Source: a virus. From it: 50,637 bases of DNA. Under the pieces are notes generated by a model. It saw only the letters and a program-made list of their open reading frames with translations. It made no database searches and had not been told where the DNA came from. Below, piece after piece: positions 1,958 to 41,859 of this stretch (positions within the stretch are counted from its first letter, which is position 1; every line of letters starts with the position of its first letter). The DNA is taken from the IMG/VR virus record IMGVR_UViG_3300027800_000005, one strand, 5' to 3'. The translations under genes were made by a program, and so were the position numbers.

Positions 1958-2124
1958 AACAGTAGAGGGGTATAGTACTACCATACTTATAGTACCCCTA
2001 CAATGTACTTTAAGCGGCTATAATGGATTTTTCCATATAGTATAAATTGACCGCAACGTCGTTAAACTACGGAGGCAAGTGGAGGCAACCCACGTAAGAA
2101 AAGCGTAGCCGAGAGAGGAGTTAC

Positions 2125-7753: not shown

Positions 7754-10700
7754 ATGGCAGCAGATGCTTCTATTGTATTTGATACGAGGCTTGACCCGTC
7801 TGGGTTTAAAAGCGGAATAGATAATATAGACAACAGCTTTATTAAGATGAGAGATACTTTGGCTGATGTAGCGTCTGCATCCGAGGATGCATTTGATAAT
7901 AAGGCCCAAGATGGCCTTGATAAACTTTCCCAAAAATTGGCCAGACAATTGGAAGAACTTGAAAAAGCCCGTGCTGCAGTATCATTACTTGGAGAAGAAT
8001 ATGCCAAGTTGGTGAGCGGAGAGCAGCAACCCAAGTCGGTTACTAACCTGATTAAAGACCTTGGTTTGGTAAATGCAGAGATTGAAAAAGAGATTGCCAA
8101 CAACAATAGATTAGTTCAATCTTTTGCAGAGGCCGGAGACGCAGTAAAGACACTCACGGAAGGCAAGCTCGGTGGGGCATTTATCGGAAATAATGTTGTT
8201 TCAAGCGTAGACGTTGCATCACAGGTTCAGCAATCATTAGGAGTTGAACTTGATGAGTCGAGTCGAAAGCTTGACGAGATGAATGCTAGAGCGAAAACAT
8301 TGTCTACTAGTCTTAGCCAGGTAAAACTTGACCCATCTATTAGTCAAGAGGCAAGAGAAACAGGTACTGAACTGGAACTCGCTGCTAGCAAAGCAAATAG
8401 ACTTTCAAACGAAGCCCAGAGTACCGAAGCAAAGATTAAACAGGCACTTGACGCCAAGGTACCTGACAAATGGGCTGCTTCTGTTGAGAGAGGCACTAAT
8501 GCTTCGCATAGGATGGCATCTGGAATAAACGAAGTAGGTAGACACGCAAAGACATCTACCGGTATTATCGAGAAAATGGCAAAAAAGCTTGTAAGCATGG
8601 CCAAAACTATGATTGTTTTTTATCTATTCAGAAATGCAATTAGTTCAATGAGGAGCTACCTTGGTGACCTTCTTAAAACAAACGAACAATTTACAAAGAG
8701 TCTGAATACAATCAAGGTTAACCTTAAGACTGCATTTCAGCCAATATACCAAGCCATACTACCATCTTTGAATTTGCTGATGCAGGCACTTGTTAAAGCC
8801 TCGCAATACCTAGCATTATTTATTAGTATGTTGTTTGGCAAGACCTATGAAGAGTCAAAGGCCGCTGCCGAAGCCGCCAACGAAGAGGCAGAGGCACTCA
8901 AAAATGTAGGTAAAGCTGCAGACAAATCTGCAGGCTCATTACAAGCTTTTGATGAAGTGAACAAAATACAGACAGATACGAGTAGTTCAGCTACATCTTC
9001 GTCGGATGCATTTGAAGAAGCTCCTATGCCAGAGTTCAATCCGAAGTGGGTTGCGATTTTGCAGAAGGTGTCCGACGGTATCAGGGAAACTATCACTTGG
9101 ATTAAGGATAATTTTGATAAGATTTTGACGGTAGTGGAGGCCATTGGCATATCAATATTGGCATGGAAAGTTGCACAAGGTTTAATTACTGCATTAAAAT
9201 TTATAGCAGGCCTTGGTACTCTTTCATTAGGTTTTGTACTTCCCGCTATTGGTTCGCTAGGATTCCTTAGTGACTTGATAGAGTTTATGAAGTATTTCAA
9301 TGACTTCAAGGAAAATGGCGCAACCTTCGGCAATGTGACAGGGATGATTAGTGAATTCGCTGGTATGGTTGGCGATATTCTGATTATTCTTGGAAAATCA
9401 AAAATAGGTGCAGCATTAAAACTTATTCAAGGTGTCGGAGAGATTGTAATTGCTATTGAAGATATGACTAAGAATGGGATAAATTGGGAGAACGCAATGA
9501 CTTTCGTCCGAGGACTCTCTAACTTAGCCATAGGGATAGGCGTATATATAGGGATAGCCACTGGTAATTTTAGGGTTGCCGGTATTGGTGTTGCATTACA
9601 AGGGTTTTCGACTATTATAACTCAGATTAGTGAGAACTGGGAGGCAATCAAAAAGGGAGACTGGAGTGGAGTAGACAAAGCTGCAATGGTTGTTGCAGTA
9701 CTTGAAGTACTTGGTGGTATTGCTTTGGCACTTGGTGCATTCTCTAAAGTGAAGGATGTTGCTGATGCAGGCAAAGCGGCTGCGGCTCTTAAACCTGTTG
9801 GTGATACTGTGGGTCAGCTATCTACGGCAACAGGGGGTTTATCTACTAAACTTACATCACTTGCAAAAAATCTTGGTATGGGAATTGTTATTATTGCAGA
9901 GGTTGCAGTTGCAGCTATTCTTATTGTTGCTGCAATTTGGGTATTGGGTAAAGGTTTAGAACAGGTTGGAATTGCTTGGGAACCCGTGATTGCAAATGCC
10001 GGAACAATCGCTATTGCAATGGGAATTGGTATTGCATTCCTCGCAGCCATTGGTGTTGTGACTGCATTACTTGGTTCTGTTGGTGCATCTCTGATTCTGA
10101 ATATTGCATTAGGCACTGCGATGCTTTTACTCATAGGGGTGGCGGCAGTGTTATTCCTGGCAGAGATATGGTTGATTGGTAAAGGCCTTGACGAGATTGG
10201 CAAAGCATGGCAACCGGTGATTGACAATGGAGAGAATATTGCATTAGCTATAGGCCTTGGCACGGCATTGTTAATCGCAATCGGTGTGGTGACTGCTTTG
10301 CTCGGTGTAGCTACTGTTGCCTCTGCCGGTTTATTACCTCTTGCAATCGCACTTGGCACCGCTATTCTCCTCGAACTTGGGGTTGCTGCAGTACTATTTA
10401 TTGCGGAGATTGTGATAATAGGATTGGCACTCCAAGCAATTGGGGTAGCTTGGCAACCTGTGTTGGATAATGGAGAAACAATAGCTAAAGGGATTGAACT
10501 AGGAACTGCTCTTCTCATCGGGATAGGTGTTGCTACTGCACTACTCGGTGTTGCTAGTGTAGCTTCTGTTGGGTTGTTACCTTTGGCGATTGCACTCGGT
10601 ACAGCAATTCTTGTTGAATTGTCTGAGTCGTTTATCATCTTTACAGAAAATTTGGTAAAAGTTGCGGACGAACTGACGTACAAACTTTCACCGTCCCTGA

Positions 10701-21424: not shown

Positions 21425-21425
21425 A

Positions 21426-21481
21426 GCCGAAACCGGGGAAACCCGGTCTGCTGAGGAATAACTTCCCAGTACTGATGAGGC
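21426..21481 (+). ncRNA. Hammerhead ribozyme candidate HH1 (stem-II-open, type II topology). Predicted cleavage after C21448.
   Basis: GCC, GAAA (21429-32), stem III CCGGG[GAAA]CCCGG, UC, stem I (21449-71), CUGAUGA (21472-78), GGC. The full conserved core is present in the correct order. Covaries with HH2. Confidence 0.7.
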
Positions 21482-21508
21482 AGGTTAACAAATTAGGAGG
21501 TTGAAACT

Positions 21509-21640
21509 ATGGTATTCGCGATTTTGGTTATTGGCGGGTTGTGTTTTTGTCTTGGTATTTTATATCCATTGATAGCAATTATTGGGTATAAAATATTTGG
21601 TGGCAAGAAGTCTATTGCACAATATATCAAGACTTTGTAA
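21509..21640 (+). CDS. Small hydrophobic peptide (43 aa, not in the track).
   Basis: RBS aggaggttgaaactATG. Sequence MVFAILVIGGLCFCLGILYPLIAIIGYKIFGGKKSIAQYIKTL, with TAA at 21638-40. Confidence 0.55.
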   Translation: MVFAILVIGGLCFCLGILYPLIAIIGYKIFGGKKSIAQYIKTL

Positions 21641-25203: not shown

Positions 25204-25218
25204 AATCGAATAAGCAAA

Positions 25219-25272
25219 GCCGAAACTGGGGGTAACCCCAGTCTACTGGATATATACCAGTACTGATGAGGC
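25219..25272 (+). ncRNA. Hammerhead ribozyme candidate HH2 (stem-II-open). Predicted cleavage after C25243.
   Basis: GCC, GAAA (25222-25), stem III CUGGGG[GUAA]CCCCAG, UC, stem I UACUGG[AUAUAUA]CCAGUA, CUGAUGA (25263-69), GGC. Confidence 0.75.
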
Positions 25273-25293
25273 AGAAAACAGGAGGTTGAAACT

Positions 25294-25470
25294 ATGACAC
25301 ATGCAGTAGGAACTAGGACAAGCGTTCGTGGTAACATGAGGGTTTATCTGGCAATAAAAAAACAAATTGACACATTGAGATACCTTGGTATTAAGCTGGG
25401 GAAAACCTGGTTTATACATATTTATTTTAAGGGAGGCTACCTACTATGGCAGTTAAAGTCGGGTTGCTGA
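25294..25470 (+). CDS. Small hypothetical protein (58 aa, not in the track).
   Basis: RBS aggaggttgaaactATG, identical to those of 21509 and 40732. Open to TGA at 25468-70, overlapping the next gene start. Confidence 0.45.
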   Translation: MTHAVGTRTSVRGNMRVYLAIKKQIDTLRYLGIKLGKTWFIHIYFKGGYLLWQLKSGC

Positions 25471-26234
25471 GTGCAATCAAAAAAGACGTCGAGAAAACTG
25501 GTTCTAGCAGAGGCAAATTCTTCTATGTCAAGAGCGGAGCTAAAGCGAGAATTCGTTTCTTGGAGGACATGGACAACGGCAGGGTTGTGCATATGCATGA
25601 CAGATGGGACCCTCAACTGAAGGTACCGTGTGAGAAGAACCGAGACGAAGACGCAGAATGCCGTTATTGCGGCGTTGAAGGAGTTAGAAACAGAGATACC
25701 TATGCATGGTCGGTATGGGACTATGATGCGAACGAAGTCAAGATATTCATGTACCCGGCTAATCAGTGTACACCGGTACCTGGATTGGTTGCATTGTACG
25801 AGACGTACGGCACTATCATTGACAGAGACTTCAGTGTTTCGCGGTCTGGGAATGGTACGGCTACATCGTATAGCCTGATACCGCTTGACAAGACAAAATT
25901 CAGAAACGAAAACGCCAAACCGTTTACTGACAAACTGTTTTGGAAGGCAATCAACGACGGCTATCCCGCACCTGATGGCGAAAAGGCCGAGGTTGAGGAT
26001 GATGAAGATGAAAAACCTGCAAAGGTAAAACCGGCTCCTGATAAAACCGAAAAGGTTCTCGCAGATGCCGAGGAAACCAGCTACGAAGATATGACTCCGA
26101 AGGAATTATATTCGTTGTGCAAGGTTCGTGACATCTTAGTAAAGACTCAGATGGAGGCAGAGTACTACATCAAAAAGCTTGAGAAATATGACCTTGAACA
26201 CGGTGACGATGAGTTCTGGGGAGACGACGAATAG
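25446..26234 (+). CDS. T4 gp32-like zinc-containing single-stranded DNA-binding protein.
   Basis: The spacing H-x13-C-x9-C-x2-C (HMHDRWDPQLKVPCEKNRDEDAECRYCG) reproduces the gp32 His64/Cys77/Cys87/Cys90 zinc-ligand spacing. Acidic C-terminus EFWGDDE. Confidence 0.6.
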   Translation: MAVKVGLLSAIKKDVEKTGSSRGKFFYVKSGAKARIRFLEDMDNGRVVHMHDRWDPQLKVPCEKNRDEDAECRYCGVEGVRNRDTYAWSVWDYDANEVKIFMYPANQCTPVPGLVALYETYGTIIDRDFSVSRSGNGTATSYSLIPLDKTKFRNENAKPFTDKLFWKAINDGYPAPDGEKAEVEDDEDEKPAKVKPAPDKTEKVLADAEETSYEDMTPKELYSLCKVRDILVKTQMEAEYYIKKLEKYDLEHGDDEFWGDDE

Positions 26235-40657: not shown

Positions 40658-40686
40658 TTGACAAAGTGTTTGGTATGTGATACAAT
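40658..40686 (+). promoter_or_regulatory. Consensus promoter P7.
   Basis: TTGACA 40658-63, 17-bp spacer, TG 40678-79, TACAAT 40681-86. The hairpin AGACAG/CUGUCU at 40695-40712 begins 9 nt after the -10 element. Confidence 0.8.
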
Positions 40687-40731: not shown

Positions 40732-40893
40732 ATGAAACTACGTAAGATGAAGATTGGCCAACTTAGAGAGATGGCTGCATCACTAGGAGCCGACAAAAAC
40801 AAATTGTACGGCACCTCAAAAGATTCAATCATTTTAACGATTACGCACCTTATGCTTACCGTTAAGTGCAAGGAGGTTGAGAGCAATGGATGA
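40732..40893 (+). CDS. Small protein (53 aa, not in the track) with a helix-extension-helix / SAP-like N-terminus.
   Basis: RBS aggaggttgaaactATG. Sequence MKLRKMKIGQLREMAASLGADKNKLYG.... Confidence 0.55.
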   Translation: MKLRKMKIGQLREMAASLGADKNKLYGTSKDSIILTITHLMLTVKCKEVESNG

Positions 40894-41065
40894 CATGAAA
40901 GAAATTAAGTGTTGCATTTGTGGCACGAAGTTTATTGGTTGGGGTAATAACCCGGAACCAGTCAAGAAAAAAGGCAGATGCTGCAATAATTGCAATCGAG
41001 ATTTTGTTATCCCGGCCAGGATTGCACAGTTGATACAACAAGGAAAAAGACAGGGTAATCCTTAA
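40886..41065 (+). CDS. Zinc-ribbon protein (59 aa).
   Basis: AGGAGG lies 9 nt before the ATG at 40886. CCICG...CCNNC gives a CxxC...CxxC pattern. Confidence 0.55.
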   Translation: MDDMKEIKCCICGTKFIGWGNNPEPVKKKGRCCNNCNRDFVIPARIAQLIQQGKRQGNP

Positions 41066-41068
41066 AAA

Positions 41069-41143
41069 CCCCCTGATGAGCTGATGAGATTTCAGCGAAA
41101 CCTAACCAATTCGTTCCTTCCCATCGAACTGGTTAGGTAGGGG
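41069..41143 (+). ncRNA. Hammerhead ribozyme candidate HH3 (stem-I-open, type I topology). Predicted cleavage after A41139.
   Basis: CCCC, CUGAUGA (41073-79), stem II GCUGA[UGAGAUU]UCAGC, GAAA (41097-100), 12-bp stem III (41101-41137), UA, GGGG (41140-43). Confidence 0.6.
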
Positions 41144-41178
41144 CATGACCCCATTAAAAACTTAAGGAGGAAACCTAA

Positions 41179-41859
41179 ATGGCAAAGAACTATCAGGCAA
41201 GAGAGGCATATAAAATCGTTACCGAATATGCTTCCGGTGAGAACAGAACAAAAGAGAGCCTCAGCTTTCTGAGTCGTTACCCGGCTTTTGCTTCGGCAAT
41301 TCAGAATAAAGACATCGAAAAGATTTTGAATGCCATCCCTTATGCCTCTGCCAGACAGATGGAAAAGGGACTCAGAGGTGGAATTGAGATTTCAGATGTT
41401 GAAGACGATGCTGAATGCGAGACTGAGGCCGAAGTCGCCGTTGAACCTGAGCCTGAACCTGAACCTGTGAAGGCGAAACGTACCAGAAAAACATCGGAAC
41501 CCAAAACCGAACCATTGCCCGAACCGGAACCTGCAGCTGAAGCTGACGCCGAGGAAGATGACGATGCCGAAGACAACGGGAAATACTCTGGTATGAAACC
41601 GAGAGCGTTGTATGACATGTGCATTAAGGCTGGGCTCAAAGCTAAACCGCAGCAAGAAGCGTCTTACTACATCGAGAAACTCGAATACGTCGACAAGAAA
41701 GCTGCTGAAGATGCCGCTGCAAAAGCTTCCAAGAAAAAGGTCGTTACCAAGGAAGATTCAAAAGACGACTGGGATGAAGATGAAGACGACAAACCGGCCA
41801 AGGTCGGAAAGCCCAAGGACAAGGGTGCAAAGGCCAAAGACGACGACTGGGATTTCTAA
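41179..41859 (+). CDS. Highly acidic low-complexity protein with a PEPEPEP linker, a HeH-like module and an SSB-tip-like C-terminus (DDDWDF).
   Basis: 226 aa, RBS taaggagg. The module MKPRALYDMCIKAGLKAKPQQEASYYIEKLEYVD is shared with the C-terminus of the gp32-like ORF. Confidence 0.7.
   Translation: MAKNYQAREAYKIVTEYASGENRTKESLSFLSRYPAFASAIQNKDIEKILNAIPYASARQMEKGLRGGIEISDVEDDAECETEAEVAVEPEPEPEPVKAKRTRKTSEPKTEPLPEPEPAAEADAEEDDDAEDNGKYSGMKPRALYDMCIKAGLKAKPQQEASYYIEKLEYVDKKAAEDAAAKASKKKVVTKEDSKDDWDEDEDDKPAKVGKPKDKGAKAKDDDWDF

Follow-up and report, generated by a model that had tools for sequence, protein, structure and literature searches.

The locus studied here raises the question of whether an RNA segment between two phage genes is a self-cleaving hammerhead ribozyme, and what such an element would do for the messages on either side of it. 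The window, i.e., the whole stretch of 50,637 nucleotides that was analysed (IMG/VR record IMGVR_UViG_3300027800_000005), carries all of its genes on the + strand. The element, HH3, occupies the 113 nt that separate a small ORF from the gene at 41179-41859, which encodes an acidic protein with a HeH-like C-terminal motif. Based on the features of the sequence and its relatives, the segment 41069-41143 is very probably a functional type I hammerhead that would split a polycistronic message at the boundary between the early and the packaging genes, with a hairpin disfavouring re-ligation. Processing of polycistronic mRNA is most likely its role.

The hammerhead coordinates given in an earlier note on this DNA all match the window sequence to the base (Table 1). 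Every invariant nucleotide, the three helices and a GUA triplet are present. Beyond the two conserved core strands, the pair A15.1-U16.1 is formed by A41100 with U41138, position H17 is A41139, and the closing pair of stem II (G10.1-C11.1) is G41080-C41096, below a 7-nt loop II that is typical of the family. Stem I comprises 4 bp, stem II 5 bp and stem III 12 of 13 possible pairs, the single mismatch being A41109/C41129. HH3 departs from the family norm in two respects, namely a stem I of 4 bp where 5 bp is usual and a very long stem III where relatives typically have 4-7 bp. A fifth stem I pair is absent because A41068 opposes C41144, and A41067 is the counterpart of the family position directly 5' of the 5-bp stem I. 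The folding z-score of the segment 41050-41180 was -4.5.

Table 1. Coordinates in the window of HH3, its flanking features and the other two hammerheads
Feature	Coordinates	Strand	Basis or details
HH1, type II hammerhead	21425..21489	+	RF02276, 41.3 bits
HH2, type II hammerhead	25218..25280	+	RF02276, 40.1 bits
Upstream small ORF, 59 aa, CxxC...CxxC	40886..41065	+	JGI gene call on identical contig
Candidate anti-SD upstream arm (GGGU 41053-56 and UCCUUAA 41059-65)	41053..41065	+	Pairs with ACCU 41173-76 and UUAAGGA 41162-68
A-rich 5' flank (AAAAA)	41064..41068	+	R2 alignment, family 5'-flank count
Stem I 5' strand (CCCC)	41069..41072	+	Sequence, descriptor, R2 match
Catalytic core C3 U4 G5 A6 U7 G8 A9 (CUGAUGA)	41073..41079	+	Sequence, R2 match
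Stem-loop II (GCUGA/UCAGC, loop UGAGAUU)	41080..41096	+	41080-84 pairs with 41092-96
Core G12 A13 A14 A15.1 (GAAA)	41097..41100	+	Sequence, R2 match
Stem III, 13 positions (12 paired), 11-nt loop	41101..41137	+	41101-13 pairs with 41125-37
U16.1 and A17	41138..41139	+	Sequence, hammerhead rule
Stem I 3' strand (GGGG), first four nt of the predicted 3' product	41140..41143	+	Sequence, descriptor, R2
Alternative hairpin GGGG-CAUGA-CCCC (GGGGCAUGACCCC)	41140..41152	+	Folding, shuffle tests; re-uses the stem I 3' strand
Shine-Dalgarno AAGGAGG (41164-41170) and AUG (41179)	41164..41181	+	Sequence, gene calls

The elements follow each other in the order stem I, CUGANGA, stem-loop II, GAAA, stem-loop III, UH and the 3' strand of stem I, with stem I open. 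The hammerhead rule sets the scissile bond directly 3' of position 17. The bond of HH3 is thus predicted to lie between A41139 and G41140, after a GUA triplet, in agreement with the site proposed in the earlier note; GUC is the usual triplet among the 68 family members listed and GUA occurs in 6 of them. Loop II with the consensus UGARAKU and an A directly 5' of stem I are conserved in the family, and both are present in HH3. Inspection of the family alignments revealed no conserved pseudoknot formed by base pairing of loop II with the 5' or 3' flank, and the contact between the stem I and stem II regions that would support activity of HH3 at low Mg2+ is thus conjectural.

Chance does not account for HH3. 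A strict descriptor, which required CUGANGA, GAAA and UH in the type I order and 4 bp or more in each of stems I, II and III, matched HH3 and nothing else on either strand of the window. In 400 dinucleotide-preserving shuffles it matched no site, and a relaxed 3/3/3 descriptor found 0.04 sites per shuffled window. The covariance-model search suggested in the earlier note had a divided outcome: at the gathering threshold the Rfam models gave no match at HH3, while HH1 and HH2 were detected in the same window, whereas a type I model built from phage sequences (R2) did recognize it. Lowering the Rfam cutoff to E<=10 yielded no acceptable match on the HH3 locus either. The best match in clan CL00010 (RF00163, RF00008, RF02276 and relatives) was a partial one to RF00008 at 19.1 bits (threshold 48.5), and RF03152 (RAGATH-1) aligned over its full length at 18.9 bits (threshold 56.3). 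By Rfam's criteria HH3 therefore belongs to no curated hammerhead family. However, none of approximately 30 other phage type I hammerheads (10 loci) was detected at the gathering threshold, and since such clear relatives were missed as well, the failure of Rfam at HH3 reflects the coverage of the models and not the absence of a hammerhead. The partial RF00008 alignment would imply a type III arrangement; this reading was rejected, as position 41051 is a C where U16.1 is required and an extra C would separate stem I from C3.

The seed of the phage-built model consisted of five members of equal length and was re-aligned with Infernal, MAFFT having misplaced the gaps in stems II and III. The model was then rebuilt as R2 from 34 phage type I hammerheads, none of them from the window. 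R2 matched the window at 41064-41144 over model positions 1-59 of 59 with 51.7 bits (E 3.3e-13), and the second-best match within the window reached 8.1 bits. The complete core, this match and a syntenic homologue with compensatory changes in its stems all support the assignment to type I made in the earlier note. That HH3 is a hammerhead of a phage family, that it lies between cistrons and that its hairpin recurs in relatives is evident from its sequence and from the comparison with them, and its cleavage is what we infer.

The phage lineage itself is rare. No match to a phage was obtained with blastn against the GenBank phages, and when viral, genome and metagenome collections were searched with TerL, TerS and the acidic protein, only one truly syntenic contig was obtained, IMGVR_UViG_3300010049_000020, in which the gene order is that of the window (small ORF, acidic protein, 124-aa protein, TerS). 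The 124-aa neighbour protein matched only itself in a set of 5.8 billion proteins; it is present in eight contigs, of which the one checked was identical over 5.4 kb and the other seven were recorded as similar places. In the same spacer the syntenic contig carries a type I hammerhead (UCCCC CUGAUGA GUAUG..CAUAC GAAA CGCC..GGCG UC GGGGA), which has the CCCC/GGGG stem I of HH3 but differs from it in stems II and III. The sequence that comes next, GGGGACAAACCC, places a GGG/CCC hairpin 3' of the cut.

More distant relatives are numerous. In a first survey, viral contigs were scanned with a pattern and then with the strict descriptor, and 31 distinct hammerheads of type I were obtained. Contigs with several copies were common, L015 having 9 and L027 having 6. 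In the alignment belonging to R2 (A5), 95.2% of the cells were paired, 12 of the 15 pairs varied on both sides, and none of 500 shuffles reached the covariation score. In a second scan only GAUGAG, the loop UGARAKU and CGAAA were used as keys, and stem I was ignored in the selection. At least 119 viral contigs with this kind of hammerhead were found, in which R2 recognized at least 106 sites, at least 84 of them distinct. Among the matches listed, the second alignment (A7) had 96.8% of its cells paired and 13 of 15 pairs varying on both sides; all five stem I pairs covaried, and the covariation score was again reached by 0 of 500 shuffles. In one member, L084:1816, stem-loop II is the same as in HH3 and stems I and III are unrelated. 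By its full-length match to R2 and its placement, HH3 is a member of a phage group of intercistronic type I hammerheads.

Several further observations were made on these contigs. Dense arrays of type I hammerheads occur in L015 (5205-11952, 9 copies), L076 (1332-6895, at least 9 copies) and L027 (5953-9171, 6 copies), with a ribozyme in nearly every intergenic spacer over 6-7 kb; within one contig the copies have near-identical stem I and loop II and a variable stem III. Variants at core position U4 were also seen. The form CCGAUGA occurs in L046 (8943-9003), L047 (8952-9012), L048 (8950-9012), L049 (8952-9012) and L050 (8951-9012), as well as in L096 (662-715) and L114 (3095-3161), and CAGAUGA, with A at this position, in L038 (2982-3040). 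These variants score 50-58 bits with R2 and have covarying stems and a normal position between cistrons. As they were found in several lineages, U4 variation may be a tolerated natural form of the core and not decay. In L013, a 133-kb viral contig, a type I hammerhead of the HH3 group (10273-10329) is preceded on the same strand, at a distance of about 1 kb, by a twister-P5 ribozyme (9183-9237, 61.5 bits), so ribozyme classes can be mixed in one phage.

The placement of HH3 between its neighbouring genes follows the pattern of the group. Between the stop codon of the small ORF (UAA, 41063-41065) and the first stem I pair there are 3 nt, and the AUG at 41179 begins 39 nt past the predicted cut. 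The Shine-Dalgarno sequence is preceded by 24 nt of the predicted 3' product, not by the 27 nt previously stated. For comparison, 128 distinct sites among the matches listed were used, an upstream ORF being counted if it had at least 40 codons and ended no more than 30 nt from stem I. Such an ORF was recognisable at 80 of these 128 sites. Among the same matches, the distance from the end of the stop codon to the 5-bp stem I was 0 or -1 nt at 57 of the 80 sites, UAA was the stop codon at 64 of the 80, and a Shine-Dalgarno sequence and start codon followed the cut at a median of 41 nt (IQR 31-45; over the 128 sites). The nucleotide directly 5' of stem I was A at 120 of the 128 listed sites, as it is in HH3. 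This near-invariance exceeds what a stop codon alone requires and hints at a structural role.

A further feature of HH3 is the hairpin that could form at the 5' end of the downstream product from the 3' strand of stem I. The fold with the hammerhead was calculated at -28.7 kcal/mol and that with the hairpin at -30.1 kcal/mol, a difference of 1.4 kcal/mol in a nearest-neighbour model that ignores tertiary contacts and Mg2+; in the same model the stem I pairs had an ensemble probability of about 7%. On these calculated values the active fold of HH3 may be a minority species. The competing hairpin noticed in the earlier note proved not to be a one-off: across lineages the downstream arm varies along with the stem I strand. 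In HH3 the two folds are near-isoenergetic. Unrelated members repeatedly have a hairpin whose first base is nucleotide 1 or 2 of the 3' product. Its arms match stem I as GGGG/CCCC in the window, GGG/CCC in the syntenic contig (L031), GGUG/CACC in L046-L050 and GGGU/ACCC in L086, and further arms are CGGU/ACCG (L068), GCGG/CCGC (L028), GGGA/UCCC (eight copies in L015) and UGACA/UGUCA (L064 group).

Against composition-matched shuffles, the terminal hairpin was significant in 12 of 37 distinct products and in 14 of 68 among the matches listed, where 2-3 would be expected and where copies within one contig are not independent. It is not universal, being missing in over half of the family members, and in some members a hairpin stands directly after stem I and does not compete with it. 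Among the matches listed, the first 28 nt of the 3' products nevertheless had a mean z of -1.08 versus -0.26 for a control at +100 (Wilcoxon p 1.3e-4); the value for the HH3 product was -2.2. The downstream RNAs of HH1 and HH2, both type II, would likewise start with a hairpin, which in their case is stem I. A hairpin at the start of the downstream message is thus the common denominator. As proposed in the earlier note, the hairpin of HH3 may make cleavage irreversible or cap the mRNA.

All three hammerheads are situated at module junctions of the genome: HH1 between the end of the tail/lysis genes and the DNA ligase/primase module, HH2 between the primase with a small ORF and the SSB gene, and HH3 between the last early genes and the packaging block (acidic protein, TerS, TerL). 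The earlier note considered two permutations in one genome unusual. This view does not hold, as Perreault et al. (2011, PMC3088659) found each of the three types to be common in bacteria and relatives of the window phage exchange type I for type II. The late-to-early junction, where the window has a type II, is occupied by a type I hammerhead of the HH3 group in six phage contigs that encode a homologous primase, and other contigs with such a primase are often without any hammerhead. Because such relatives carry type I at this junction, or none, the permutations appear interchangeable there and the elements accessory, and the frequent lack of a hammerhead in these phages indicates that it is dispensable.

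Other features of the window were recorded in passing. A near-consensus sigma-70-like promoter (TTGACA, 17 nt, TG-TACAAT; 11 of 12 matches) is located at 40658-40686 (+), about 400 nt upstream of HH3 and just before the overlapping small ORFs at 40732-40893 and 40886-41065. Both type II hammerheads are followed by an identical 17-nt sequence, AGGAGGUUGAAACUAUG (21495-21511 and 25280-25296), comprising Shine-Dalgarno, spacer and start, that leads into short ORFs of 43 aa and 58 aa; HH1 and HH2 with this sequence have the look of one ribozyme-plus-leader cassette that was duplicated. The SSB-like protein encoded after HH2 (25446-26234) and the acidic protein after HH3 share the C-terminal motif ..M.P..LY.(M/L)C......A.YYI.KLE.., followed by an acidic tail with Trp (37% identity over 70 aa, E 4e-9), and the motif also ends the homologues at L008 2764-3258 and L046 10975-11817. 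Near-threshold matches to GP20-b RNA (RF03003, gathering threshold 36.2 bits) were found upstream of structural genes at 2048-2107 (+) in the window (33.8 bits) and at 9610-9667 (+) in the TerL-related contig L002 (31.7 bits).

The course of events at HH3 could be as follows. A long rightward transcript would fold into the three-way junction and cut itself between A41139 and G41140. As the arrangement is type I, the upstream RNA would retain stems II and III, so that its 2',3'-cyclic phosphate end would lie behind a compact structure that should hinder 3' exonucleases. The downstream RNA would begin with a 5'-OH on GGGG, and once the weak 4-bp stem I had opened, the GGGG-CAUGA-CCCC hairpin could form, disfavouring re-ligation and shielding the new 5' end. 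The outcome would be separately stable and separately translated mRNAs on the two sides of the early/packaging boundary. The end chemistry and the effects on stability in this scheme are inferred. A wider and more tentative proposal, which we regard as possible although doubtful, is that the members of the group are natural modular 'cut-and-cap' cassettes in which the stop codon doubles as the 5' flank and the ribozyme caps the 3' end of the upstream message, a subset having a one-way hairpin switch in addition. If so, the downstream copy of the stem I strand would give irreversibility and protection of the 5'-OH, as stem I itself does for type II, and the cut at HH3 might also free the Shine-Dalgarno sequence from an upstream anti-Shine-Dalgarno (anti-SD) arm.

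Two other explanations assign a regulatory function to the competing structures. HH3 could be a regulated attenuator, in which GGGG 41140-43 is partitioned between stem I (active) and the hairpin (inactive), so that a fraction of the transcripts is cut, ribosomes terminating at the UAA next to stem I unfold the ribozyme and thus couple cleavage to translation of the upstream ORF, and the ratio of processed to unprocessed message is set in this way. The near equality of the two folds, with the hairpin slightly ahead, would suit such a switch, as would the covariation of the hairpin arm with stem I in several lineages. So would the stop codon abutting stem I at 57 of the 80 sites among the matches listed, because a terminating ribosome, judged by the size of its footprint, would then cover the 5' strand of stem I and the core. 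However, many members have no overlapping hairpin or have a non-competing one after stem I, and the A found 5' of stem I at 120 of 128 listed sites suggests that the UAA region may be kept for structure and not for coupling to ribosomes. Attenuation is compatible with processing of the message and does not exclude it; as the principal function of HH3 it seems rather unlikely. Somewhat less probable still is that cleavage serves to separate two arms masking the ribosome-binding site of gene 41179, thereby switching on its translation. The candidate pairing brackets the whole ribozyme, covers the Shine-Dalgarno sequence of this gene and is present in the minimum-free-energy fold of 41050-41180, and the upstream (26 nt) and downstream (50 nt) segments form a duplex of -11.8 kcal/mol (z -3.55), a value as good being found in 0 of 300 shuffles. 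On the other hand, it is not conserved, with a family mean z of -0.17, p<=0.05 at only 3 of 41 sites and a z of +0.57 in the syntenic L031. Moreover, translation of the upstream ORF would in any case open the pairing, since the upstream arm is part of that ORF and its stop codon.

The remaining explanations deny HH3 a role as a ribozyme. It could be a decayed hammerhead-like relic, inherited or transferred with a cassette, whose short and sequestered stem I no longer allows efficient cleavage and which has no effect on the phage. Scores under all Rfam thresholds, the 4-bp stem I with its competing hairpin, the patchy occurrence of hammerheads in related phages, and the C or A at core position 4 in relatives at another junction, where some copies may be drifting, could all be read in this sense. 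Yet 13 of 13 core positions and both closing pairs are intact, and features of the family outside the core are retained as well, namely loop UGAGAUU, the A-rich flank 5' of stem I and the distances to the stop codon and the start codon. A short stem I also appears normal for the group, since members with 3 bp reach up to 9 conserved copies per contig. A relic is thus improbable. The possibility given the least credence, a very faint one, was that 41101-41137 is a plain structural element, either an intrinsic terminator or an RNase-protective hairpin, around which the hammerhead core is a coincidence. Stem III does form a stable 12-bp hairpin at a gene end. However, no T-run follows it and no terminator-like site was called at 41069-41160 (+), the stems being followed by AUUAAAAAC, and a full core around such a stem would arise by chance in fewer than 1 in 400 windows, while the match to R2 extends over the full length of the model. 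This explanation is effectively refuted.

A type I hammerhead processing the polycistronic message would place HH3 among elements of a known kind, as the types of phage hammerheads, their clustering and their cleavage have been reported since 2011 (Perreault et al. 2011, PMC3088659). In that study, clustered hammerheads flanked genes in prophages, the type of each ribozyme being marked in its Figure 3; they cleaved in vitro, those of the Agrobacterium set also in E. coli, and processing of long phage transcripts was proposed as their role. In a 2019 review the function of hammerheads in bacteria and phages was still called elusive (PMC6765202), and the case of HH3 does not solve this. What is modestly new is a large group of phage type I hammerheads that is missed by Rfam. 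Also modestly new are the stop-ribozyme-start architecture of this group and the comparative support for a 5' hairpin that re-uses a stem I strand in some members. Annotation pipelines based on Rfam will under-count such ribozymes in viromes. The window phage offers a clean test system, with three ribozymes at the late, DNA-metabolism and packaging junctions of one 50-kb genome, in which the idea that the downstream RNA may be selected for starting with a hairpin, whatever the permutation, is testable.

The prophage hammerheads of Perreault et al. (2011) resemble those of the window in having a consensus core, in occurring several per phage genome on the transcribed strand, in including types I-III and in flanking single genes or short gene blocks. 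They were, however, retrieved with the models and descriptors of that study, whereas the HH3 group escapes the current Rfam thresholds, and where that paper stresses pseudoknots and loop-loop contacts, the HH3 group has a conserved UGARAKU loop II and a 5' A instead. RAGATH-1 (RF03152), on which the main text of Weinberg (2017) contains nothing as to hammerheads, shares with HH3 the type I order, a long stem III and a triplet directly before the 3' strand of stem I. In its model a 5-bp stem I follows an A/U-rich linker, UAUAAAAU, where the linker of HH3 is UUAAAAA. For stem II the model has one G-C pair enclosing about 7 nt, unlike the 5 bp with a 7-nt loop of HH3, and the counterpart in HH3 of the model's upstream hairpin is weak, with 2-3 bp, and lies inside the upstream ORF.

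Compared with the type II copies (RF02276), HH1 and HH2, HH3 has the same core in the same genome and a like position, with a stop codon immediately ahead of it and a Shine-Dalgarno sequence 20-40 nt further on. In type II, stem I and CUGAUGA would go with the downstream RNA, whereas nearly all of HH3 would stay upstream, and the 5' hairpin of HH1 and HH2 is their own stem I, whereas that of HH3 is a separate element re-using a stem I strand. A functional parallel to the proposed action of HH3 is RiboJ, the sTRSV hammerhead joined to a 23-nt hairpin, which cuts off the RNA upstream of it, so that the message begins with a hairpin just ahead of the ribosome-binding site; in E. coli it raises mRNA about 2-fold and protein 2-10-fold (PMC6206723). 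RiboJ, however, is engineered and of type III, with a hairpin clear of the ribozyme helices, while HH3 is natural and intercistronic and its hairpin competes with stem I.
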